Origin: Antedon mediterranea
Taxonomy: Eukaryota > Animalia > Echinodermata
Length of the DNA: 64,000 bases
Reading direction: 5' to 3'
Assembly (NCBI RefSeq): GCF_964355755.1
Contig: NC_092672.1
Location: 2,976,001 to 3,040,000 of the forward strand
The translations under genes were made by a program, and so were the position numbers. The notes beneath the pieces were generated by a model. The model worked only from the letters and a program-made list of their open reading frames with translations. It was not told the origin of the DNA and made no database searches. Below, in pieces: positions 14,833 to 52,539 of the stretch (positions are counted from its first letter, which is position 1; each line of letters opens with the position of its first letter).

Positions 14833-25152
<10,320 letters not shown>

Positions 25153-38330: not shown

Positions 38331-39093
38331 CATAGTCCCATATACACATACTACCAACAGCAACGTCAAGTGATATCTTCCCCATGGTTTAAGACTTCTT
38401 AAAATGTCGTCAACATCCATCTATATGATGAATATCGTGTATTTTAGTGATATTTTAAAATTGTTCTACTGCAGTTACTGCAGTCATAACTACATTTTAA
38501 TGTTTGTTTTTAATGTTGGTTCGATTTAATTCATTGGATGGACCGTGCAGAAAGGAGGCTTTTTGAATAGCGCGCGAACAAACGTACAAGCTCTCTCGTT
38601 TCCCTCTTTCTCTCTCCCTAATTTAGAAAATAGATTACTAATGTAACTACTACTAGGCCTACCTTAGACTTTTCAGCTGCTACGTTTTAGTACTTCTTGC
38701 GTTCGTCTCAAAATGTTTACCCTCTATACCCTTTGGAATCGAATGCTATATTGGCTTACGTCTGTGTCATCATGATGTATATAAATGAGGATATGAAATA
38801 TAATGAGCTAATAATATTTAATATTCAAAGTTAAATGTCTTGTGTACTAGTTACTACTCGCAATACATGTAGTTAACCAAATGGTTGTGTGCGTTTTTTT
38901 ATGACCATCCAATATTTTTATTATTTTTAGAATCACACAGGCTCAGATAACGATGTAACGATCTGTATCTTCAATAGGCCTCCATAGTTTTTACTTTATC
39001 ATATGCCTGTATTTTATTAATGGCAAACGTCTATTTTGACAATCGAATGATGAGTACAATTATGTGTGTAAAATCCTTATATAGGCTTTCTAA

Positions 39094-39258
39094 AGCTTGG
39101 TTCCCACTAGAACGTAACGCAACGCAAGTGAATTGACCAATCACAAGCGATGGCTTATTCGCTTTTGATTGCTAACTGTCTATAACTTCGCTTGTCATTG
39201 GTTAAAACGCTTGCGTTGCGTTTACGTCCTTGCGTTACGTTCTAGTGGGAACCAAGCT
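39094..39258. mobile_element. MITE family A (PIF/Harbinger-like), intact copy
   Basis: Perfect TIR AGCTTGGTTCCCACTAGAACGTAACGCAA with TAA TSD (39091-93, 39259-61). Confidence 0.9.
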
Positions 39259-39609
39259 TAACACTGGTACACTTTTTATTAGATTAGAATCTATTTTAAG
39301 ATTGAGGGCGCTCTGTCTAAATTTTCGTATTTTATTATTGTGTCATCGATCATTTTGGAAAAACCACGAGCTCATCTCTCTCACCCTCAGGACTAGCTTT
39401 TTTGTAAGAAGTGCAGAAATCACAATTTATTAGCTTGCTTTATTACGTAGTTTTAAGTTTATCATTATGTATTTATTCAATCTGTTTCGGTTATCTTTAA
39501 TTAGAGCCAGTGCCTGACCTAGGTTGTCTTCCTCTTTAGCTTAGTTACCAGACTGTCACTCTCTGCGTACACACTACACTACCAGCCAGGAGAGCGGAGG
39601 TCAGGTAGG

Positions 39610-39929
39610 TAAAGAGACTGTTTATGTTTACTTATTAACCTAGGAGGACAATTAAGTCTCTTCGGTGTAACTACACACTCATCGTTTGTACTCACCTAAT
39701 CCTTTCTAGGCTGGTACGTGATGGGTATAGTTTGTGTCCTTCTTTGGTTGTGTCTTCGCTTCAAGAGATCGAGTTTTGCCTCTCGCACATTCAACGCCCG
39801 GGGCTGGTCGTGACGTATCTCGCCACTGGCCAGTCCCAGGGCCGGATTCGGGGGTTGAGTGCGCGTAGGCCCGGCGATTGGCTGTGACGTATAGATGACG
39901 TAACCAATAGCCAATCGCCAGGCACTACA
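39610..39929 (-). repeat. 3' LTR
   Basis: Base-for-base identical to 51600-51919 on visual comparison; reads TGTAGTG...CTCTTTA on the minus strand. Confidence 0.97.
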
Positions 39930-39950
39930 ATCCTCCTCGTTTTATTTTCT
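39930..39950 (-). other. Polypurine tract
   Basis: Minus strand AGAAAATAAACGAGGAGGAT directly abuts the TGT start of the 3' LTR. Confidence 0.75.
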
Positions 39951-40039
39951 TTGTTTCCTGCCCCCCTGACTATTCTCTGACTGGTCTTCCCAAGGGAGAC
40001 AGGCGCATTTTAGTTCACCGTCAGTGTCTGACATTGCTG

Positions 40040-40210
40040 TTCAATTTGATATTGGATTTCAAGTTCATTTGGAAGTTCTTTTGATTTCCAGTTCCTTTTA
40101 AAGTTCATTTGATTTCAAGTTCATATGAAAGTTCCTTTGATTTCCAGTTCCTTTTAAAGTTCATTTGATAGTTCCTTTGAAAGTGCATTTTGATTTTAAG
40201 TTCATTTCTC
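40040..40210. repeat. Short degenerate tandem repeats in the element 3' UTR
   Basis: About ten copies of (a/c)agttc(a/c)ttt(g/t), alternating with gatttc. Confidence 0.75.
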
Positions 40211-41267
40211 CATGGTGGGTCCTCCACTCCTTCCTCTTCTTTCTTTTATTTTTTTTTTTTTTTTTATTTTTTTTTTTTTTAACATGTAACACAACGGGGG
40301 GCACAGCCCCAACAAGAACAGGATTTGAAAAACGGAACACCAGAACGTCAAGGTGGGGGAATTACCCCAACAATTTGAACATATGACAGCCAACAGGGGA
40401 CTAAAGAGTCCCGAATAAAAAATGTTGCCATAACAATCGAACAATGGGCAATACATACGAACAGTTGAAATAAAGAAACAAGAAAATCAAATCCCTTCAA
40501 GCCATGTGGCATAGGGTATACATCGGGTTGCTGCCCGGCACCGTGTTCCAGGGAACATTGGCACCTGACAGCCCCCCGGAAGAGAAAAAATCTGAGGAAC
40601 ACCGTTCTAGGGGTACAGAATTACAGATTTGAGAAAAGAAGGCACAAGCCTATGGGGATTGGCAAAAATTTAGCAAACAACAGTAAAATTTTGTTCTGGA
40701 ATTCCAGTATATAGGGCTGACTGTTTGCGTGTATACAAAATATTCTAATTAGATGAGAGAAATCGTCAAAAAGAGACCGCACTGACAATCGTAATTGAAA
40801 CAAGGGACTTACGGTCCCAGCTAAATAAGTAGAGGACATGTTGGACCTCAAATTTTGGGGTGGGAAGAGGATTTGCTCTTCGCCAACTTTTGGGCGTGCG
40901 GTGACTAAGGACAGACAATTGTCCTGGGGTACAAAAATGTTATACGCAAGTACACCAAGAAGGGGTGTACTGTATTCAAGTGATTTAGAACGGTGTGGTA
41001 TATAATAATCGTTTTGAAGAATTGAGTCCTGTTAAAGAATTGAGTTCTTTTACTCTCTTTTCATACTAACCGTAGCGCCCCTGGGCGGTGCGGCCAGTCA
41101 TGTTGATTTCATTGGTCCATTTTTTTTTTTTTTTTTCTTTTAAATGTGGTTCCCATACTAACCGTAGCGCCCCTGGGCGGTGCGGCCAGTGATGAAACTG
41201 TGTTGATTTCATTGGTCCAATTTTTTAATTTTTTTTTTTTTTTTTTTTTATATAGTCCAGTGGCACT

Positions 41268-42992
41268 TCAGGCGTCCAACTCCTCTGCGAGGGTCAGCTG
41301 CTCGATGCACACGCGGTGCATGCGGGCGGCCGCCTCTCGCAGGGCGCTGCTGGAGGATGACAAGGCTGCTGCTGCCAGTCGTTGGTTCGCAGTATACGCC
41401 TCTCTCAGCAGTCGGCGGGCTTCCTCATCTAAAGCTTCCGCTGCCCGCTGCGGTGTTGTGGAGGACTGTTGAGGGAGCTTCGGAGATCCCATACTAGCCG
41501 TAGCGCCCCTGGGCGGTGCGGCCAGTGATGAAGATTCCGGTGCCGGTTCCATTGGTCCTGGAGCTCTCGACGATGGCGGAGGGCATGAGGGCAGGCCTCC
41601 GTACTTTTCGTTGAGTTCATGAAGTCGTTTCGGGTTAGCCCTCATGGCCTCTGCCAGCAGTGGGCACAGACAGAAAGGGTGCAGCATCACCAGGGCGGTG
41701 ACCTGATTTCTGATGTCCCTTTCCATTGACGGCGCCTTCCAATTTACTGCCTGAGCTGTAAGCGTGAGTTGACGCAACCACTTGTTGCCCAGGCCGCAGG
41801 CTCCGGGCCTCAGGAAGTACTTTCTCAAAAAATCAAAAGCCTTCCTCAGAGTTGAGAGACCATCTGGAAGCAGGGGGATCAGTTCTTGAAGGTATCTCCA
41901 GGCTGTCCTCATCTTATGGTTGTCTTGATGGTGTACATACTTTGCCACAACCTCTGGAGCATGCACATTGAGGTGGTCCATTGCCGAGCCTTGCAGACCG
42001 CAAGCTGGCACTGGGCACGCATACCCCGTTCCCTTCTTTGCTGCGGGAGTGGCAGGGTGCCGCGAGAAATCTGATTGTTCTCCTGCTGACGGGTCCACGA
42101 CCTCCGCCGGAACGACGTAAGGTTTACGCCTTGATGATTTTGATCGGGGCGAAGGTTTAGTCCGCTCTGCCGCCCTGGCAGCAGGCCGACCCCTAGCGTC
42201 CCTTGATGACTTTGACCGGGCCGAAGGTTTAGTCCGCTCTGCCGCCCTGGCAGCAGGCCGACCCCTAGCGTCTCCGGACGGGTTCTTCAGCCTGAAGTCC
42301 TGACAAATAAAAGTTGTTTTGCTTGCCTCGTCTCTTAGGAAACGCGTCATGAGCTCCCCCACCGTCTCTGCCCTAGGCGGAAACGGATGGATAGAACAGA
42401 TGATGCGGTCCGGTCCGATTGTGGATACCACCTTCGATTGAAGCAGAACACCCTTCCTGGCTAGGCTTTGAATCTCACAGCGAGCATCCGACGAAAGGTC
42501 CGACCCAGGAGGCCGCGGAACGCCAGCCACCTCTATATTGGCACGAAACATCTCTGCATCCTCTGGTGATAAGGCCACCATACCATCGAACGCACCCCTG
42601 CCACTCACTCCCGAGATCCGCCGGATCCACAAGACTTGGCCCAGCGCGACTCGAGGCTGTGAAGGGGACAACATGGATGGTGATGGGGGGCGGAGAGGCG
42701 ACATCGGATCTTCACGCTCCATCTCCTTTTCTGCTTGCTGGGGGAACGACTCTGCCCCTGGGGGCAAGAGAAGCGCCGCCACAGCCGGTATGTCAGTGGG
42801 GACCGAGTCCTGCACTTCCCCATGGGGTCCGTGCCGGGGCTCGTCCTCGGTTGTACCTACCACTACCCCAGGGGGTAGTGGAGTGGTCGCCCTCTCGGAG
42901 GCCCGGGCAGGGGCCGGCAGAGAAGGGAACTCCCTCTCCACTAGCTCTGCCCAGTCCATTGGCGTCACAGCTTCTGAGTAACTCTTTTCCAT
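41268..42992 (-). CDS. Retrotransposon ORF3, unknown function (574 aa from ATG 42992; 588 aa from 43034)
   Basis: Long uninterrupted ORF after pol on the same strand. Pro-rich, 24-aa basic tandem duplication, CPVPAC-x8-HLNVH, C-terminal Ala/Arg/Glu helix. Confidence 0.8.
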   Translation of the reverse strand: MEKSYSEAVTPMDWAELVEREFPSLPAPARASERATTPLPPGVVVGTTEDEPRHGPHGEVQDSVPTDIPAVAALLLPPGAESFPQQAEKEMEREDPMSPLRPPSPSMLSPSQPRVALGQVLWIRRISGVSGRGAFDGMVALSPEDAEMFRANIEVAGVPRPPGSDLSSDARCEIQSLARKGVLLQSKVVSTIGPDRIICSIHPFPPRAETVGELMTRFLRDEASKTTFICQDFRLKNPSGDARGRPAARAAERTKPSARSKSSRDARGRPAARAAERTKPSPRSKSSRRKPYVVPAEVVDPSAGEQSDFSRHPATPAAKKGTGYACPVPACGLQGSAMDHLNVHAPEVVAKYVHHQDNHKMRTAWRYLQELIPLLPDGLSTLRKAFDFLRKYFLRPGACGLGNKWLRQLTLTAQAVNWKAPSMERDIRNQVTALVMLHPFCLCPLLAEAMRANPKRLHELNEKYGGLPSCPPPSSRAPGPMEPAPESSSLAAPPRGATASMGSPKLPQQSSTTPQRAAEALDEEARRLLREAYTANQRLAAAALSSSSSALREAAARMHRVCIEQLTLAEELDA

Positions 42993-43089
42993 ATTCGATC
43001 TGAAAGACATAATGAAAAGCACCTTTCCAATCATGGTGAATGTGAATTACAGTGTTAGTCAGCCCGGGGTGAGACGTTTGAATGCGGAT

Positions 43090-46000
43090 CTACTCGGCAC
43101 ACTTGGTACATTTAAATCGATCGATATCGATAGCTTCCGCTGGAGTAATGTTGACGCATGCTCCATGGTACCATTCACCGCACAGATCGCACTCGATCAT
43201 AAAACGCCCCTCCCATGGCTTCCTACAAGTACAGTAAATGCCGTCATCTTCGGCATCCCCGTCGGGGTCGGAATTCGTCAGATCAAGGTTGGTGATCCAA
43301 TTTGGCAAATCCCGATCCCGGCAGAGCTTCAGTTTATCGTGGTGGATTACAAATACTTTATTACGGAGGCGTACACGGAAGGCGTACGGGGCCAGCACCT
43401 CAGTGACTACCCCCGGACCCTTCCATGGCGCATTCAATTTCTTGTTTTTCCCCTTTATTTTGGTCTGGTCGAACACATAGACTTTGTCCCCAACTGCGTA
43501 TGTACGCTCTAGTAGCTTAAGGTCGTATTGATACTTATTGCGCTTTTGCATTGATTTTAGATGTGTTCTTGCAATATCGTGCGCTAACTTCATATTTTCT
43601 ACTAGGCCAGTGGTGTATGAATATGGATCAGTAATTGTTGTGCCCCCTGAAGAGCCGAACATGAGGTCGGGTGGTGTCGATACCTCCCTGCCCAGCATCA
43701 TCAGGTTTGGTGTAGATTGGGTACTTCGGCATACCGTGGCCCTAATTGCACTCGTTATCTGGGGCAGATATTTATCCCAGTCCTTTTGTTGTTTTCCCAC
43801 AAAACACCGGACCGCATTCATCACAGTCAGATTGTAACGTTCTACCTGACCGTTAGCTGAAGGACGGTACGGCGTGGTGTGGGTCTTATTAATGAGGAGA
43901 ATCTTGCAGAGCTCCCCGAAGAGATCGCTCTCAAAATTCGGACCCTGGTCCGAGTGCAATTGCAGCGGCATACCAAATCTGGAGAAGAATTCCCTTACCA
44001 GTACCTCGGCAGTCAATTGTGCAGTCTGCCGGGGTACCGGGTAGGCCTCTACCCACTTTGTAAATTGATCCACTACCATCAATACATACAGATTCCCACT
44101 ACTGGACTGAGGAAATGGTCCTGCAAAGTCTATGTGAACCCTTTCCATTGGGGCTCCCGAGTGGTAATTAATCTGTTCCGAGCGGCCTTTCTTATTCCCC
44201 CTCTTGTGGCTGTTACATATGGGACAGCCTATGACATATCTTTCGATATCCCCGGCCATCCCAAACCAGTAGTATCGTTGTTTAAGACGGAGCTTAGTCC
44301 GTTTGATACCTTGGTGGGCGGCCGATGGGAGATCATGATAAGCTTGCATTGTTGTTTTAATCAATGACTTCGGAAGAACAAGAAGGTCCTCCTCCCCCTG
44401 TTTATCTTGAATGAATAACACCCCGTCTCGCAAGCACATCCTTTCCTTACTCAACCAATAATGTTTTGTTGCCGGGCTAGTAGCGAAAAGCTCATTTGCC
44501 GAAGGCAGCGCGTCACCCTTAAACCAGAGTAACACGGGCCCCAGCTCCTGGTCTTTCCCCTGAGCCTCTTGGATTTCCTGGGTAGAGAAACCCCAATGAG
44601 ATTGCTCCGCCCTTTCCGTGGTTAGTTGATGAACATGTTGGGAGGGCAGGAAAGGCTGCGAGATAGGTTGATTTTGATGTGCGTGCACACCCGTCAGCGG
44701 AATGACGTCATCAACCTGGTCGATGAACGCCCCCCATTGCTGGTGCGCACGTACACAGTACTTACACCCCTTGCAAGGTAAATCAGATAATTTCACCCCA
44801 TGTTTGTAATGATTAGCCATTTCAGGTGCCCGTGACAATGCATCGGCATTGACATGTTTTTTACCAGGGCGGTGTTCTACTATCATTACATACTGGCTAA
44901 GTTCTTCTATCCAGCGGGCCAGTTGCCCTTGGGGTTCCTTGAACCTCAGAAGCCAAGTCAGGCTACTGTGGTCGGTGCGAACCTTAAATGGTTTACCCAG
45001 CAAGTAGTGTCTAAATTGACGTGTGAATTTCACAATCGCCAACAGTTCTTTACGGGTGGTACAGTAGCGTTGCTGCTCTGATGTTAATGCTAAACTAGCA
45101 TAAGCAATCACACGCTCCTGACCCCCTTGTAATTGGGACAATTCACCTCCGATTGCCTGATCTGATGCATCGGTATCAAGGACGAACATGTCATCAGGAT
45201 TCGGAAGTGACAAAACTGGTGGTTGTGTCAATTTAGATTTAATTGAGTGAAATGCATCTATTTGAGGTTTGTCCCATCGGAACTCCCCCTTCTTTGCAAC
45301 TGCATAAAGAGGTCTTGTTAATTCGGCAAAGTGGGGAATGAATGCCCTATGGTAATTTGCTAGGCCAAGGAAGCGTTGAGCCTCCTTGTAGTTCTTAAGA
45401 TCAGGCCACCCACACACTGCCGCGATATCGGTATCGGACATCTCGAGAGTGTTGCGGGAGACCATACGGCCCAGAAATTCCACTTTCCTCTGGAAAAATA
45501 GACATTTCTTTGGTTTTAGTTTCAGATTATATTGTCGGAACCGACCTAGGGCCTCCCTTAAGTTATTGCTGTGGTCTTCAAATGATTTGCCCAGGATAAC
45601 CACGTCGTCGAGGAAAGCCAGAGCAGTCTGCCAATTTAGACCACGCAAAACCATATTGATGACCCTAGAGAAGGTTGCCGGACTATTACACAGGCCAAAG
45701 GGCATTTTTACAAACTCGAACAGGCCATATTTGGTGACGAAAGCGGTCTTTTTGCGATCGTCGGCATTGAGGTTTATTTGCCAATAACCAGAAATGGCGT
45801 CCAATTTAGAGAACCATTGATTACCCGACAATGTGTCGAGGCAATCCTCTAAAATTGGTAATGGATATACATCCTTTACCGTGATGTTATTTAAAGCCCT
45901 ATAGTCTATGCAAAATCTGACGTTTCCATCCCTTTTCCGGACTAGGACTGGGGCGGAGGACCATTCAGAATTGGACGGCTGAATGATACCCCCCTCCAGC

Positions 46001-47016
46001 ATTTTATCCAGTTCTTTGCGTTCTTCATCGGCAAAGTGTAACGGGGTACGGCGAAGTCGGTGTCTCACTGGTGCTGCATCAGACGTATCTACCCGGTGAT
46101 CAATATTAGGGACCTCCCCAATATCGAATTGATCCCTGGCAAACACATCTGCGAACTCAGTAAGCATCTCCTTCACCACCCCTGCCTGATCTTCCGATAA
46201 ATTGGTAATAGAATTTTCATAAGTTGTACGCATGTGATGTGGCAATGCGTGTGTGGCCGGAGAGGTTTCCCCCGGATGGGTGAAAACTTCCCCAGCTACA
46301 CAGGATTCTATTTCAGATGCAAACCCAATTTCTAAACCTGCTTTGACAGTTACGTATTTGTTGGTTGTATTGACCATGCAGATCACAGGCGATTCACCTG
46401 CGGTGTGCACAGTTCTAGGAATTGTTAGGTTATTGTGGCCATGAGGTTCTACAATGTAGTCATGCAATTTGGTATCTAACTGACAGGAAACATAGGCTAT
46501 TGATGTAGGTGGTATCACACGCCGCTTGCATGTGATTATTCTGCAGCTAGAGGGCGTTGAGGGCGCCATACCATTTTGTATTAATGGGACAGCAACCCCA
46601 CCGACCTTTAACAGCATTTCGCCTATGTTGACATCTGCGTTTGTGCCCCTCATGAAATCCAAACCTAGTAGCATTTCGTCTTCAATCGGTGCAACATAGA
46701 CATAAGTGGGGTAGATGTTTGGCCCAATTTTGAGTTGCACCGGACCTATTTTTCGCCCTTCCATCGAACTACCCTTACCCGCCATGAATAATTTAATAGT
46801 ACCCACGGTGGGCGGAGTAGGGGTAATTGAATGGTATAAGCTATCAGATATAATAGATACAGTCGCTCCACAGTCGACAACAGCGTCAACTTTAACGGAT
46901 GCGACCGTAACTTTAGTGTAGAGTAATGAATTAGATTTCACTCGCTGTACAATAAGTGATTCAGTTGGGTCGCACTCTGGAGTGAACAATTTGGAGTCGA
47001 CCCCTAGTCGTTTAAA
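43090..47016 (-). CDS. pol: Pol polyprotein: protease, RT, RNase H, integrase, C-terminal PHD finger
   Basis: VVDCGAT protease; RFCIDYRALN, MPFGL, FLDD RT; LDTDAS/ELLAI/RTDH RNase H; H-H-C-C plus HIDFAGP, SDQG, VER integrase; C4HC3 PHD. The frame is open up to the slippery site at 47016. Confidence 0.97.
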   Translation of the reverse strand, partial: FKRLGVDSKLFTPECDPTESLIVQRVKSNSLLYTKVTVASVKVDAVVDCGATVSIISDSLYHSITPTPPTVGTIKLFMAGKGSSMEGRKIGPVQLKIGPNIYPTYVYVAPIEDEMLLGLDFMRGTNADVNIGEMLLKVGGVAVPLIQNGMAPSTPSSCRIITCKRRVIPPTSIAYVSCQLDTKLHDYIVEPHGHNNLTIPRTVHTAGESPVICMVNTTNKYVTVKAGLEIGFASEIESCVAGEVFTHPGETSPATHALPHHMRTTYENSITNLSEDQAGVVKEMLTEFADVFARDQFDIGEVPNIDHRVDTSDAAPVRHRLRRTPLHFADEERKELDKMLEGGIIQPSNSEWSSAPVLVRKRDGNVRFCIDYRALNNITVKDVYPLPILEDCLDTLSGNQWFSKLDAISGYWQINLNADDRKKTAFVTKYGLFEFVKMPFGLCNSPATFSRVINMVLRGLNWQTALAFLDDVVILGKSFEDHSNNLREALGRFRQYNLKLKPKKCLFFQRKVEFLGRMVSRNTLEMSDTDIAAVCGWPDLKNYKEAQRFLGLANYHRAFIPHFAELTRPLYAVAKKGEFRWDKPQIDAFHSIKSKLTQPPVLSLPNPDDMFVLDTDASDQAIGGELSQLQGGQERVIAYASLALTSEQQRYCTTRKELLAIVKFTRQFRHYLLGKPFKVRTDHSSLTWLLRFKEPQGQLARWIEELSQYVMIVEHRPGKKHVNADALSRAPEMANHYKHGVKLSDLPCKGCKYCVRAHQQWGAFIDQVDDVIPLTGVHAHQNQPISQPFLPSQHVHQLTTERAEQSHWGFSTQEIQEAQGKDQELGPVLLWFKGDALPSANELFATSPATKHYWLSKERMCLRDGVLFIQDKQGEEDLLVLPKSLIKTTMQAYHDLPSAAHQGIKRTKLRLKQRYYWFGMAGDIERYVIGCPICNSHKRGNKKGRSEQINYHSGAPMERVHIDFAGPFPQSSSGNLYVLMVVDQFTKWVEAYPVPRQTAQLTAEVLVREFFSRFGMPLQLHSDQGPNFESDLFGELCKILLINKTHTTPYRPSANGQVERYNLTVMNAVRCFVGKQQKDWDKYLPQITSAIRATVCRSTQSTPNLMMLGREVSTPPDLMFGSSGGTTITDPYSYTTGLVENMKLAHDIARTHLKSMQKRNKYQYDLKLLERTYAVGDKVYVFDQTKIKGKNKKLNAPWKGPGVVTEVLAPYAFRVRLRNKVFVIHHDKLKLCRDRDLPNWITNLDLTNSDPDGDAEDDGIYCTCRKPWEGRFMIECDLCGEWYHGACVNITPAEAIDIDRFKCTKCAE
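46962..47016 (-). promoter_or_regulatory. -1 programmed ribosomal frameshift signal
   Basis: U UUA AAC at 47016-47010 in the gag frame, 6-nt spacer, then stem GGGUCG-ACUC...GAGU-G-CGACCC; pol is in the -1 frame. Confidence 0.88.
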
Positions 47017-49214
47017 GAGTCTTCTTCATCTACATCGAATTCATGTTCGACTAGATTTAGCCTTCTGTTTTGCTTGAAGTTTGATTTATTATTATGTGGT
47101 CTATTTGAATTATTGGGAGTCTTGGTGGGGCATTCCCTTGCGAAATGACCCTCCTCACCGCAGGAGAAACAGCCGGCCCCTCTCTCTGGAGATCTACGTC
47201 GAGCCGGGGATGGTTGCCTCTCACGCGGCCTATCAAGGCGATCTAATACCTTGTCTAATTTCGAACAAAGGGCCGAGACCTGTTCTTGCAATTCGTTTAT
47301 TCGGGTGTTGGAAGCATGAACAGATTCCCGGTCCAGAGAACGATCTCGATATCGGGCACCATGGGGCGATTGCGGACGTGCAAAACGCACCACGCGCCGT
47401 TTATCCTCCCTTTTAGTTATTTCATTAATCCGCCCAAAGTCACCCTCAGCCTGCAAGTTGCACTCCTGAACACTAGGTTCTGGGTACACCTGGCAGACAG
47501 TGGATGGCTGGGGTGGAGTTTCTGGCAGATGTGTAGTTGGTGTTGAGGCCAATTTAGGTGTTATTATTGGTTCATCGTTGACACTCTGGTGCCATTCGAT
47601 AAGTCGGATAGCTTCAGGAATTGTTTTGGGGCGCTGCAGGCTAGCAAATTTGCCGCTTGGCCTATCAACACACCCACGACAAAACTTTAAAGCTGCCATT
47701 TCTTGGATCCAATGATTGGTGGCCCCTTCACCCCCTTGCGTTCTATACGCCTTGGCTGCGGCTTTAAGCACTCTGGCTCCCCACTCACGTAGGGACTCCA
47801 GGTCTTTTTGGAAAAGTTTTTCGAATTTTGCAGCCAGAAGAGATTGGTCTTGGGCGGAGCCAAAGTATTCGTTAAAACTAACGATGAGCCTCTCGTAAGA
47901 GACTGCACTACCATGCAAGGTCAGCAACGTTTGTAAGTACGCGGCTGCCTGGCCCCTCATGCTCATGTGGAAAGCTTCCTTGCGTTCGGCCCTAGACCAT
48001 CCATTAATCTGGGAAAATCCCTCAAATCTATCATGGAATATTCCCCAGTCGTCATCCCCACCGTGGAATTCTAGATGTTTTTGCGGCCTGAAAGGCTGTT
48101 GACCCCGATGATCACCGCGGCCCCACTCGTCCCGCAAGGGTAGGCGGTCAAGCCTATTCCTCTCGGGGCGAGGAGGTCGAAGGAATCGTCCGAGATCGTG
48201 CTCATAATTTTGATGATCATTTCTCCCACCATAATCACCCATCTGATAATTATCTCGGTTGATGTTTTGTAAGGGTAGTGGTGGTTGATTATAATTCATT
48301 CCAGTGGCGGAAGGATGACGAGGACGATAGCAATCGTTGTCCAGGTACCCCCGGTTGTAATTATCACCTCCGTACCCATGGTCACCTTGAGGGTAGGAAG
48401 GTCGAGTTCCCCATGAGGGGTCTCGGTTCTTATTTTGAGCAGTAGGGCGTTGAGGTAGGCCATGTTCAACAGCGGCATCCCCCCGTCCTACGTTGGTGTT
48501 ACAATTTATTTCTTTTTCTCGATCCGAATGATCGGGACGGTAGCCGTGTTCTACAGCTGGATAGCCATAAAAACCAGCCCCAACCCGGTCATAAGGATGG
48601 GCGTCTTCGTTTCCCCCAGCTCCCGTGCGAGCACGTGTACTAGGAGACGGTGAAGTATCCACCATGTGCACTCCAGAACGATCAAGAGATCTACCCCGAC
48701 CAGCAGCAACAGGGCCGCTGGTCGCAGTGTCACCCCTTCTCATTGGAGTACGCGGAAAAACCTCATCGCCACCCATATCGCCCGCCCGGTGGTTGTTGTG
48801 GAGCGTACGGGAATCTAGGTTGCTAGGCACGCTTGCCTGGTCTGCATAGCGTTGATCGCCTCCGGCCCCCGGATGCAAGGATGGGTCGCTCGGCAAAGGT
48901 GGTACGGGGGTGCAGGCCTGCTCGTGAGCTTGATCGTGCTCTCCCGAACCGTTACCCACATCTCCATACCCCCCAGTCGGCGGTCCCATTCTCACATACC
49001 GAGAGTTAATGGCATAGTCCATGTTAAAGGACAAAAAGTCGAACGAATTATCGCCGACTGCCCGTGCTAGATCTTGTGGGTTTGTGATATTCCCATAATT
49101 ATCCCTGTAGGCCCTGATTTTCTCGGCCAAGGGTGGGGGTAAACCCTGTGGGAAATCTTTCGCCCTACGGACAAAGTTGATCTTAAAAGGTATTGGTTCG
49201 ATGGTTTTTGGCAT
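47004..49214 (-). CDS. gag: Gag, 736 aa
   Basis: Capsid-like region (DWGIFHDRFE...NGWSRAER), coiled coil, zinc knuckle CFSCGEEGHFAREC; lies upstream of pol. Confidence 0.93.
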   Translation of the reverse strand: MPKTIEPIPFKINFVRRAKDFPQGLPPPLAEKIRAYRDNYGNITNPQDLARAVGDNSFDFLSFNMDYAINSRYVRMGPPTGGYGDVGNGSGEHDQAHEQACTPVPPLPSDPSLHPGAGGDQRYADQASVPSNLDSRTLHNNHRAGDMGGDEVFPRTPMRRGDTATSGPVAAGRGRSLDRSGVHMVDTSPSPSTRARTGAGGNEDAHPYDRVGAGFYGYPAVEHGYRPDHSDREKEINCNTNVGRGDAAVEHGLPQRPTAQNKNRDPSWGTRPSYPQGDHGYGGDNYNRGYLDNDCYRPRHPSATGMNYNQPPLPLQNINRDNYQMGDYGGRNDHQNYEHDLGRFLRPPRPERNRLDRLPLRDEWGRGDHRGQQPFRPQKHLEFHGGDDDWGIFHDRFEGFSQINGWSRAERKEAFHMSMRGQAAAYLQTLLTLHGSAVSYERLIVSFNEYFGSAQDQSLLAAKFEKLFQKDLESLREWGARVLKAAAKAYRTQGGEGATNHWIQEMAALKFCRGCVDRPSGKFASLQRPKTIPEAIRLIEWHQSVNDEPIITPKLASTPTTHLPETPPQPSTVCQVYPEPSVQECNLQAEGDFGRINEITKREDKRRVVRFARPQSPHGARYRDRSLDRESVHASNTRINELQEQVSALCSKLDKVLDRLDRPRERQPSPARRRSPERGAGCFSCGEEGHFARECPTKTPNNSNRPHNNKSNFKQNRRLNLVEHEFDVDEEDSLND

Positions 49215-51587
49215 CCCTGGAAGATAAGAAAAATCCTTCCCAATTAGTTTTATTCTTCATTTATAGGCCTGGTAAGTACTCCCGTCCCCCCGTGCATCCA
49301 ACCAGCGAGCGGAGGTAGCATCGGTCTGATGCTGTTTCGATGATTATTTTTGCGTCTCACTCGTTGGGTGCCCAGAGAGAACAGGGGTAGTACCAGCCCA
49401 ATACACACCTAGCGCTAATCACAGTTCAATTAAATATAATTACAATGTAAGGGTTACCTCCCCCCATCACAAAAATTTTAGCTAATTATGTGTACATATA
49501 ATGATTTATGGGCACTCACATTATGCCACGAAAATAAAATAAAAGGACTACACAAATAGTACAGGTTAATGAAAAGAATATATGATATACAAGGCATGTG
49601 ATAAGAGATACAGATCGTTACCAGATGTTATTGTAGCCAAGTGTCAATGACATGGACAAAACAAAACATTACAGATTACACACTGTGACAGTTAAGAATC
49701 GAAATTCATACAAGACATGTTGAAAAACAATCATGATAAGAAAAAGATCATACAAGAACATGCGAAAATAAATGAGACAAGACACGGAAAAAATTTTATT
49801 TTGAAAGAAAAAGGCATACAAGACATATAAAATAATTCTAGGCAAAAACCTAAGATAATCAATAAATAAATAAATATGCCTAAAGTATCAAAAAATAATA
49901 TTCGAACCAAAAATCAATAAATATAATAATAAAATAAATATAGGTACCGGCCTAGCCTGTACACTAAAAAATATTTCAATTTTAAAAAATCTATGCTAAA
50001 TAAAGACATTCTAAAATAATAACAATAAACAGGAATAATTAAGCCTATGCATAATTACCCAAAAAATAAAAATAATTCATGAAAATAATAGGTAGGAAAT
50101 TCCACTAGAATAACCACCTAATAAATAAAACATCGTCTAACTAAAACAATAAAAATTTACTAATAATTTTACGTCGAAAATAGTTCAATAAAAATAAAAT
50201 AAATCAATCGGAAAATAACTTAATTCCAAGCAATCAATATACACGAATGAATAAATAAATAAATAATAATCCTAATGTCATTTCCATCCAAGTGGGAGAG
50301 ACAAAATAACTATAATCTAACTACCCCGCGATAGCACAGGCCAGAAAATTCCAGCCCGTCTATCGTCAGGCCATAAATCAATCCAGACAATACACAGACC
50401 GGGAGACGAGCTCTCAGTTCTGCATAAAACTAAAATCTAAAAATAGTAAGGAGTATCCCTATATTATTCTACCAATCAGAATACAGTACTCACCTAACGT
50501 CATCATCGAAAGTCGTAAACAACTGTTGACCTCGTTGATGCAAGCAGCTATCCGCGAGGGTAGCAAGCGAATGCGTGCTCGCGATTGGCTAGCGATGAAT
50601 CACACGTGAGAAGACTGATAGGCAGAAAGTTGTTGTTTGACAAGGCGAACCGCTCAGGAATGGCGGCATTCTCAAAGCAACGGCAGTGTAGATAACTACT
50701 GTTTAACCCCGTTGTTCGTGAACACAAGTCGCCAAACCAGAGTCGGATTACCCTAACAAGCAACACCCTCCAATAACCTCGTTCTGTTGGTCGTAGGTTA
50801 TGGTAGTGTAATTTAAGGATTAAAAATAATGATAATAAAAATCGTGGATTTGAATAAGCTAATAAATAATCAAAATACGCGAGAGATGCCAACCACAAAA
50901 AATGGCGTCACTCACTAAAAAATTGTTTCGAAATTAAATTTAATATTTTTCCTACAAATTATAAATTTGCTAATTATTATGTTTTGTACATTTTTCCAAT
51001 AATATTCTGAATCACGGGCCAGACATATTCATTGTTCTGGAATCACGGGCCCAGTGCGTTAAACATACAATAAAAAACGCTGTTCCATGTTCACGTGCAT
51101 GGTATGTACGTAGCTTCGGCTAGGTCACGGGCCCAGGGCAGGGCCCAGCCACATCGCTACACACACTAATATCTTTTTCGGATCATTAGGAAATAAAAAA
51201 TGTACCTATCCGAAGAATCAGAGTACAAATGGGTCCCCCATAAATATACTGTCTGACAATTCGGATTACGGCACAAATCCAAGACGGAGAAATAATAATA
51301 TAATTTACTATAAACAACTCCCGACGGCTCGACCCCATCGATCGGACGAAACCTGCAGGCACGACAGCAGATTTCGGCCGCGAGACGGAGACGAGTCGTT
51401 GACGAGGTGGGAGATGGGTAGTGGGACGTGCTGCCCAGCAAACACAGAGGTCGTTCCTCCAGCATTGCCTCTGGGCAACACCACAGGGCGAAACGAGATG
51501 TGCGAACTAGAACAACACTCCTACCTTCCCAAACAGCTACACGCGGTTGACAGTGTCCCCCGCCGAGGCAAAAGGAACACCAGTTTA

Positions 51588-51598
51588 CCTCGTCGCCA
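51588..51598 (-). other. Primer binding site, probably tRNA-Ser(GCT)
   Basis: TGGCGACGAGG 1-2 nt inside the 5' LTR; complementary to the ...CCUCGUCGCCA 3' end I recall for metazoan tRNA-Ser(GCU). Confidence 0.75.
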
Positions 51599-51599
51599 T

Positions 51600-51919
51600 T
51601 AAAGAGACTGTTTATGTTTACTTATTAACCTAGGAGGACAATTAAGTCTCTTCGGTGTAACTACACACTCATCGTTTGTACTCACCTAATCCTTTCTAGG
51701 CTGGTACGTGATGGGTATAGTTTGTGTCCTTCTTTGGTTGTGTCTTCGCTTCAAGAGATCGAGTTTTGCCTCTCGCACATTCAACGCCCGGGGCTGGTCG
51801 TGACGTATCTCGCCACTGGCCAGTCCCAGGGCCGGATTCGGGGGTTGAGTGCGCGTAGGCCCGGCGATTGGCTGTGACGTATAGATGACGTAACCAATAG
51901 CCAATCGCCAGGCACTACA
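51600..51919 (-). repeat. 5' LTR with CCAAT boxes and CRE half-sites
   Basis: Identical to the 3' LTR; three CCAAT/ATTGG and three ACGTCA motifs in its first ~120 nt. Confidence 0.97.
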
Positions 51920-52539
51920 TAGGTGTGTGGAGAGAGGTTTACTATTATCTAGGGTAAGCCTATGCCTAGGCCTAGGTCTACTGGCACTAGCACTATCAAG
52001 TTTTTTCGCCCTTATTATCTAGGCCTATAATGTGATTATCAAACGCTATTACCTGTATCCAATTAAACTTAATTAATTCATGTAATAACTAATATATTGC
52101 TGATTGTAGATACCAGCATAATCAAAATGCATACCATGGTCCATACCACTTCACTTGCACAATATAAGTACTAAAATGTGCATTTATGTATTTGAAAAGG
52201 GATGCAATTTAAGCAGTGGCTGATCTGTGAAGTACAAAATAAGTATGTAGGCCTATGTATGTAATTGTTACCTGTCTTGTCTTATTTTGTAATGCAACCA
52301 AATTATCTAAGTTACCGCTCTGTATGTTATATTTTTTATACCGAAATAGATAATTTAATTAATTAAATAACTTCAGATTGTGCTGTTTCGAAGAAAAAAG
52401 GCAATCAAATAATATATACAGACGGTAGTATGCCTCAATAAATAGTGGCCTAAATAATAGTAGCCTAGTTCTGAATCAGAAACATAAAATATGTATATTC
52501 TATTTTCTCACAGATATCTGATTTTACAATAAAGTAAAG

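Follow-up and report, generated by a model that had tools for sequence, protein, structure and literature searches.

To our knowledge, little is known about the export of intron-retaining RNA by LTR retrotransposons other than those of insects and yeast. Two cis-acting elements of retroviruses bear on the subject: the CTE of MPMV/SRV sits in the 3′ region, and the RRE of HIV is absent from fully spliced RNA. As described in PMC3856414, the CTE binds NXF1 via a stem-loop, while the direct repeats (DR) of RSV are linked to the cytoplasmic accumulation of unspliced RNA and to assembly, one copy being enough in src-less strains. Among accessory proteins, CERV of the Cer1 element of C. elegans is produced from a spliced mRNA, is required for export of the genomic RNA (gRNA) and is a multi-domain protein with a Cys-rich, putative RNA-binding finger; a term search of the same paper gave no mention of a response element for CERV (PMC10309623). 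In Gypsy-type elements of bdelloids, a third reading frame encodes enzymes (a DEDDy exonuclease or a GDSL esterase) in place of env (PMC5408684).

The repeats described here lie within the window, i.e., the whole stretch of 64,000 nucleotides of Antedon mediterranea DNA that was analyzed, in an intact 12.3-kb Gypsy LTR retrotransposon situated on the minus strand and surrounded by AT-rich host DNA (Table 1). This element has the two LTRs, the target-site duplication (CCTA on either side), the primer-binding site after the 5′ LTR and the purine tract before the 3′ LTR expected of a Ty3/Gypsy element, as well as the gene order of gag followed by pol with PR-RT-RH-IN. The primer-binding site presumably matches tRNA-Ser(GCU). 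The two LTRs are identical, indicating a very recent insertion; their termini read TG...TA rather than TG...CA, provided that the CCTA duplication has been read correctly, and they contain two CCAAT boxes, ACGTCA motifs and a strong splice donor. The 5′ UTR (49257-51599) is very long, about 2.3 kb, with a GC-rich part followed by an AT-rich part. Just before the polypurine tract, the 3′ UTR contains a 28-nt tandem array of 5.7 copies (40051-40207) and another long A-run (40240-40280). No assignment of this element to a clade was found in PMC6238403, PMC6673714, PMC2836005 or PMC5408684, and a term search of PMC12440569 on the clade was without match. No description of this family or of the repeat was found among titles and abstract openings of openly available papers.

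Table 1. Features of the retrotransposon and of its repeats (positions in the window)
Feature	Positions	Strand	Remark
5′ LTR	51600..51919	-	320 nt; predicted splice donor at 51687
Primer-binding site	51588..51598	-	from sequence
Predicted splice donor, 5′ UTR	50487..50497	-	donor at 50495
gag	47004..49256	-	open frame with CCHC knuckle
pol	43090..47025	-	protease, RT, RNase H, integrase, C-terminal PHD finger
Predicted branch point and splice acceptor	43000..43061	-	branch point 43061-43054; acceptor AG 43001-43000, 7 nt before ORF3 ATG
ORF3	41268..42992	-	574 aa
Unit in ORF3	41487..41558	-	72 nt; 9-mer common to all units, then a diverged spacer and a conserved core of 46 nt
Hairpin copy 1	41490..41530	-	inside ORF3; encodes part of SSLAAPPRGATASM, predicted disordered linker
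A21 run	41229..41249	-	before UTR unit 1
UTR unit 1	41151..41218	-	68 nt; counterpart of ORF3 unit
Hairpin copy 2	41154..41194	-	3′ UTR; G9-U34 wobble
A17 run	41120..41136	-	before UTR unit 2
UTR unit 2	41059..41118	-	60 nt; second counterpart, tandem duplicate, spacing 92-100 nt
Hairpin copy 3	41062..41102	-	3′ UTR; substitution at the bulge, 8 nt deleted upstream
3′ LTR	39610..39929	-	identical to 5′ LTR

Several features indicated that ORF3 is likely to be expressed from a spliced RNA. These were the predicted branch point and acceptor, the two predicted donors, of which the one in the 5′ UTR is identical to the LTR donor over 12 nt, and the start of a database protein (P0004) at the post-acceptor ATG, bypassing two in-frame ATGs upstream. 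The full-length RNA would, therefore, retain an intron and have to escape nuclear retention. As all of the hairpin copies are located downstream of the predicted acceptor, they would be present, if the splice is real, in spliced and unspliced RNAs alike, rather than being confined to intron-retaining RNA as in the Rev/RRE system; hence, an element of the CTE or DR type fits better than an RRE or a selective packaging signal. With the RSV repeats this locus shares short direct repeats beside an accessory reading frame near the 3′ end, but the former are 115 nt in length and flank src, whereas the cores found here are of 41 to 46 nt and one is within a reading frame (compare PMC3856414). No relationship in sequence is expected between the two. 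Similarly, the CTE is a structured cis-element of a retroelement whose RNA occurs in spliced and in unspliced form, as predicted here, but has a larger stem-loop than the candidate hairpin, for which there was no Rfam match (compare PMC3856414).

Three copies of a 41-nt RNA hairpin, one inside ORF3 and two in the 3′ UTR, were described in an earlier note on this DNA, and all three proved to be real. When up to 3 mismatches were allowed, a 26-nt core was detected three times in the 64 kb, as compared to no occurrences in 100 shuffled sequences. Only two sites differed among the copies of the window, and both differences were structure-neutral as originally described, involving a bulged base (position 4) and a G-C versus a G-U pair (position 34). 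The motif GCCCNNGGGC was confined to the three copies, an observation that is not independent of the repeat itself. A scan of 39500-52000 against Rfam with E values of up to 10 produced nothing at the repeat and one unrelated match elsewhere, and there were no matches to the exact core in viral contigs or metagenome contigs. A degenerate pattern matched once in prokaryote genomes; this match, a palindrome of high GC content from a bacterium, was taken as chance because its flanks were unrelated.

The predicted fold was as previously drawn for all three copies, with a centroid consisting of 3 bp, a bulge, 8 bp, a 3x3 internal loop, 4 bp and a tetraloop. Energies for the sense strand were −19.7, −17.2 and −17.2 kcal/mol (z of −2.6, −1.7 and −2.0), while those of the reverse complements were −22.4, −18.3 and −18.2 kcal/mol (z of −3.4, −2.1 and −2.3). 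The reverse strand was, thus, as stable as the sense strand or more so, also with DNA parameters, which contradicts the proposal that good folding is limited to the transcribed strand and means that the G-U pairs yield no energy-based strand argument. Position 34 stays paired on the sense strand only. Stability was modest: when 936 segments of 41 nt with matching GC content were taken from the element, 2.2% and 7.8% of them folded equally well on the sense strand. When pairing spans were restricted to 80 nt or less, all three hairpins formed with a probability of about 1.0; with spans of at least 120 nt, the UTR copies paired with each other and the probability of each forming its own hairpin was 0.06 or less. 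No complement of at least 9 nt was detected between the repeat and the LTR, the primer-binding site or the rest of the element.

The 41-nt repeat is the conserved core part of a duplicated unit of 60 to 72 nt, longer than was initially stated. All three units open with the same 9-mer, which contains CCAAT, is located outside the hairpin and is identical throughout. Divergence of the adjacent duplicated sequence was confirmed by comparing the ORF3 unit with UTR unit 1: the spacer exhibited 6/13 changes and a 4-nt gap versus 1/46 changes in the core, a contrast with a Fisher p of 2e-4 for borders that were set post hoc. The conserved block stops 2 to 3 nt from the base of the hairpin on either side. 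Each UTR copy is indeed preceded by an A-run, located 35 and 18 nt upstream, respectively. Elsewhere in ORF3, the basic linker contains a 72-nt in-frame tandem duplication with 3 differences (window 42129-42272).

Relatives of the pol protein exhibited 44 to 56% identity, included mollusc and sea-urchin records and mostly had a PHD finger. The core was detected in 0/78 loci with such relatives, allowing up to 7 mismatches. A structure with the same topology (stem, 3x3 loop, 4 bp and tetraloop) occurred once per strand behind pol in 36 loci, totaling 129,224 nt and few of them containing a full UTR, which is the level expected by chance (0 to 2 in 20 shuffles). Dispersed or tandem duplications were common in these post-pol regions. 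The peptide encoded by the hairpin was not kept in three relatives of ORF3 (P0005, P0126 and P0127), while the domains on either side of it were kept in P0005 and P0126. These results indicated that the hairpin is lineage specific. Absence of the repeats from related elements had been named at the outset as evidence against a functional element, and this absence is found for distant relatives. A second organism, termed organism B, retains the hairpin.

Variation was examined in contigs of public sequencing runs, X6 and X7 being from organism B and X1, X3 and X5 making up the remainder. The placement of contigs favors similar ones, changes near contig ends are unlisted, bins 41123-41216 have no cover since repeats were skipped in placement and read depth is a hint only, giving no copy number. 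The main repeat contig of organism B differed from the window at 1/49 nt in both X6 (record 17) and X7 (record 20). The ORF3 contigs of this organism diverge by 8 to 18%, and pooling of four such contigs from X6 gave a background of 130/996 differences (13%). The probability of observing 1/49 is 0.009 with a 13% background and 0.09 with one of 8%. Such keeping of the core across organisms points to function. In both X6 and X7, a contig for the ORF3 tail begins at 41507 with nothing joined upstream, so that the ORF3 copy of organism B may be diverged or the upstream contigs may have been filtered out. Summed depth peaked on the repeat in X3 (997 versus 116), X5 (60 versus 4 to 6), X6 (2069 versus 555) and X7 (546 versus 43 to 125). 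In X1, a 623-nt UTR contig with a depth of 652 begins within copy 3, ORF3 contigs having depths of 87 to 170, so that, as far as depth can serve as a hint, most UTR-bearing sequence there continues directly from a hairpin and many elements without this ORF3 retain a UTR hairpin.

Three substitutions were detected in these contigs. The first, at 41521, is in a UTR-type copy and breaks pair 10-33 (depth 38 of 727 in X3 and 8 of 34 in X5). The other two, both at synonymous third positions of ORF3, are located in the same single X3 contig (depth 38): a CpG-type transition at 41499 breaks pair 11-32, and a change at 41502 falls in the internal loop. A depth of near 38 suggests that the X3 contigs concerned are single loci. 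Loose contig ends further indicated one copy from which the hairpin is deleted (41542, in X3 and X5) and one in which it is cut (41517, in X3). Of the five substitutions known from the window and the contigs, three are structure-neutral and two are stem-breaking, compared to a neutral expectation of 40 to 53% (P of 0.3 to 0.6). Two of the neutral changes are in the window or in contigs of high depth, while the two stem-breaking changes and the two deletions are in contigs of low depth, possibly representing dead copies. The earlier note had specified beforehand that stem-breaking substitutions would count against the hairpin; this was borne out in part, stem-breaking or deleted copies being present at low depth. 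There were no compensatory changes among the few repeat variants of the contigs and the window. This pattern fits with conservation of the UTR copy and drift of the ORF3 copy as coding sequence. One contig of X5 skips 825 nt (window 40838-41662), a stretch that covers the tail of ORF3 and each of the three hairpins, but is weak as the ends are not GT-AG and the short side is only 30 nt.

Three relatives of ORF3 were found among 1.8 billion representatives, two labelled Antedon mediterranea and one Anneissia japonica, which makes a crinoid host likely. No Pfam match, TatD domain or enzyme domain was detected in ORF3, which consists of a beta barrel (about residues 110 to 220), a basic linker, a CCHH knuckle with a helical domain (323 to 466) and C-terminal helices. 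The knuckle, next to the helical domain, is conserved, and the net charge of +11 derives mostly from residues 226 to 466. The resemblance of the barrel to S1/OB RNA-binding domains is weak (best E of 2e-3 and TM of about 0.4, only a single model of the five being confident), and an AlphaFold model placed the hairpin-encoded peptide within the disordered linker. No usable match was obtained with residues 315 to 574 in the ESM Atlas, no ORF3 loci were present in viral contigs and there were no shorter proteins carrying the ORF3 tail among 5175 candidates. A profile of four ORF3s matched reading frames downstream of pol in relatives (best E of 2e-21), and 18 of the 22 third reading frames scanned behind pol of relatives end in TatD, the others being one GDSL, one gag and two with no match. 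ORF3 is, hence, a TatD-less member of an old, clade-wide family. P0004 and P0005 are identical over residues 1 to 41 (window 42870-42992) but only 38% identical over the remainder, which is a sign that members of this family have recombined and gives ORF3 the appearance of an exchanged cassette, with the junction directly behind the splice acceptor.

The charge, knuckle and weak S1/OB likeness are circumstantial evidence, based in part on modeling, that ORF3 and the hairpin could form a pair of the Rev/RRE kind, the proposed logic being the same in that a basic accessory protein would meet a structured RNA (compare PMC10309623). ORF3 differs from Rev, however, in having 574 aa of mostly unrelated build. 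Like CERV (PMC10309623), it would be a multi-domain accessory protein of an LTR retrotransposon, with a putative RNA-binding finger and made from a spliced mRNA, the splice being predicted, but its family usually ends in TatD and no homology to CERV was found. A specific form of this proposal is that the crinoid ORF3, after loss of the clade's TatD nuclease, is a Rev/CERV-like factor whose OB-like barrel and knuckle bind the hairpin, with the site in the coding sequence and the UTR copies constituting an autoregulated export switch. If true, no protein-RNA export pair would have been defined earlier for a retrotransposon of an invertebrate deuterostome. We consider it improbable; the ORF3 family elsewhere does without the hairpin, which weakens the case for a dedicated pair.

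Our preferred, though tentative, reading, to which we assign slightly less than an even chance, is that the hairpin is a lineage-specific cis-element in the RNA of the retrotransposon, similar to the RSV DR or the CTE. The hairpin would form co-transcriptionally, may recruit a host export factor or a protein of the element and would aid export or packaging of the intron-retaining genomic RNA. One UTR copy could be the working unit and the others redundant, as for the RSV direct repeats. The extra copies would have arisen by template switching of the reverse transcriptase at the A-runs, and the ORF3-embedded copy is likely to be either the one that was duplicated or a remnant of that event. The suggestion of a cis-element, for which the earlier note had argued, is favored by the core/spacer contrast, the conservation in organism B and the splice signals, while its action at the level of RNA rather than DNA is presumed, the lack of strand asymmetry and of compensatory changes and the predicted cross-pairing of the UTR copies at equilibrium being points against it. 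A-runs or other homopolymers and stem-loops increase template switching (PMC3187697), so that amplification requires no selection, and the repeats may, alternatively, be functionless: a GC-rich segment of the ORF3 linker was duplicated into the UTR and the hairpin, as a pause and homology site for the reverse transcriptase, was copied, deleted and homogenized. The mechanism is documented (PMC3187697), the UTR units are bounded by A-runs, the 72-nt tandem in ORF3 and the 28-nt repeats in the UTR are further duplications of this element, and such events are common behind pol in relatives. Moreover, deleted, cut and recombined forms converge at the repeat, and the substitutions are consistent with a neutral expectation. 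Homogenization within a genome would, however, leave unexplained the 48/49 identity in organism B, whose ORF3 contigs are so much further apart, and the ending of the conserved block at the hairpin base. In addition, direct repeats change in number or vanish quickly, those not under selection usually being gone within a few cycles (PMC3187697). Absence of function is, on balance, unlikely, but with an appreciable chance of being correct. If neutral, the locus would be a clear natural example of template switching driven by A-runs and hairpins.

Equal folding of both strands, and conservation of the primary sequence, loops included, without covariation, would also be expected of an element acting as DNA. 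The palindrome CGCCC-AG-GGGCG, which we take to resemble a site for an AP-2/COE-like factor, could be bound by a dimeric transcription factor and form, with the CCAAT-like 9-mer and the A-tracts, an internal enhancer or insulator, the Su(Hw) array carried by Drosophila gypsy being an insulator analogue. The identity of the CCAAT-containing 9-mer in the three units despite its location outside the hairpin points in this direction, as does the restriction of GCCCNNGGGC to the three copies insofar as it is separable from the repeat. On the other hand, a block of 41 to 46 nt with 15 predicted pairs far exceeds one factor site, and one organism B contig has a dissimilar sequence at the position of the 9-mer. 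A CTCF site was rejected, as no match to the 14-nt core consensus was present in the repeat even when 2 mismatches were tolerated. There is, in our estimation, little likelihood of a DNA element. A further explanation is RNA pairing, in which the near-palindromic hairpin opens into an extended duplex between genomic RNAs or tandem copies and promotes co-packaging and recombination. The computed gain for self-dimerization was −12.4 kcal/mol, which ranks at the 5th percentile when compared with 162 stable hairpins of 41 nt from the element, the global fold has the UTR copies paired with each other and the shared N termini of P0004 and P0005 are a sign of recombination. The extended duplex was, however, the sole favorable dimer form, and such a duplex is open to any hairpin; the CAGG loop is not self-complementary, unlike that of a retroviral dimer initiation site, and so allows no kissing step, and the repeat lies at a great distance from the 5′ leader and would also be present in spliced RNA. 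Dimerization is, accordingly, a very doubtful explanation. Under the preferred interpretation of an RNA cis-element, a 41-nt hairpin that is repeated three times, conserved across two organisms and located beside a predicted spliced accessory gene provides a compact target for reporter and binding tests.

Several other observations were made on related elements and on the window. The third reading frames with a C-terminal TatD nuclease domain are possibly more interesting than the hairpin. They encode 540 to 1080 aa, many with a CCHH knuckle upstream and many in elements with a PHD integrase, and were detected in loci L001, L002, L005, L006, L008, L009, L011-L013, L015, L022, L027, L028, L051, L054, L057, L058 and L064. 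A search of openly available literature for a TatD reading frame in gypsy retrotransposons gave one unrelated paper; a description may exist in Repbase or in closed papers. As in the bdelloid elements, a GDSL reading frame is present in one relative, but the clade of the window element mostly has TatD and the ORF3 of the window has no enzyme domain (compare PMC5408684). The GDSL lipase in question (L014, 3514-4680) also contains a CCHH knuckle. In one pol relative, P0103, a KptA-type domain is fused to pol. Outside the retrotransposon, a small inverted-repeat element with 30-nt perfect arms was detected at 39093-39259 and 17813-17969. It has relatives at other sites of the window and is likely to be a host MITE.
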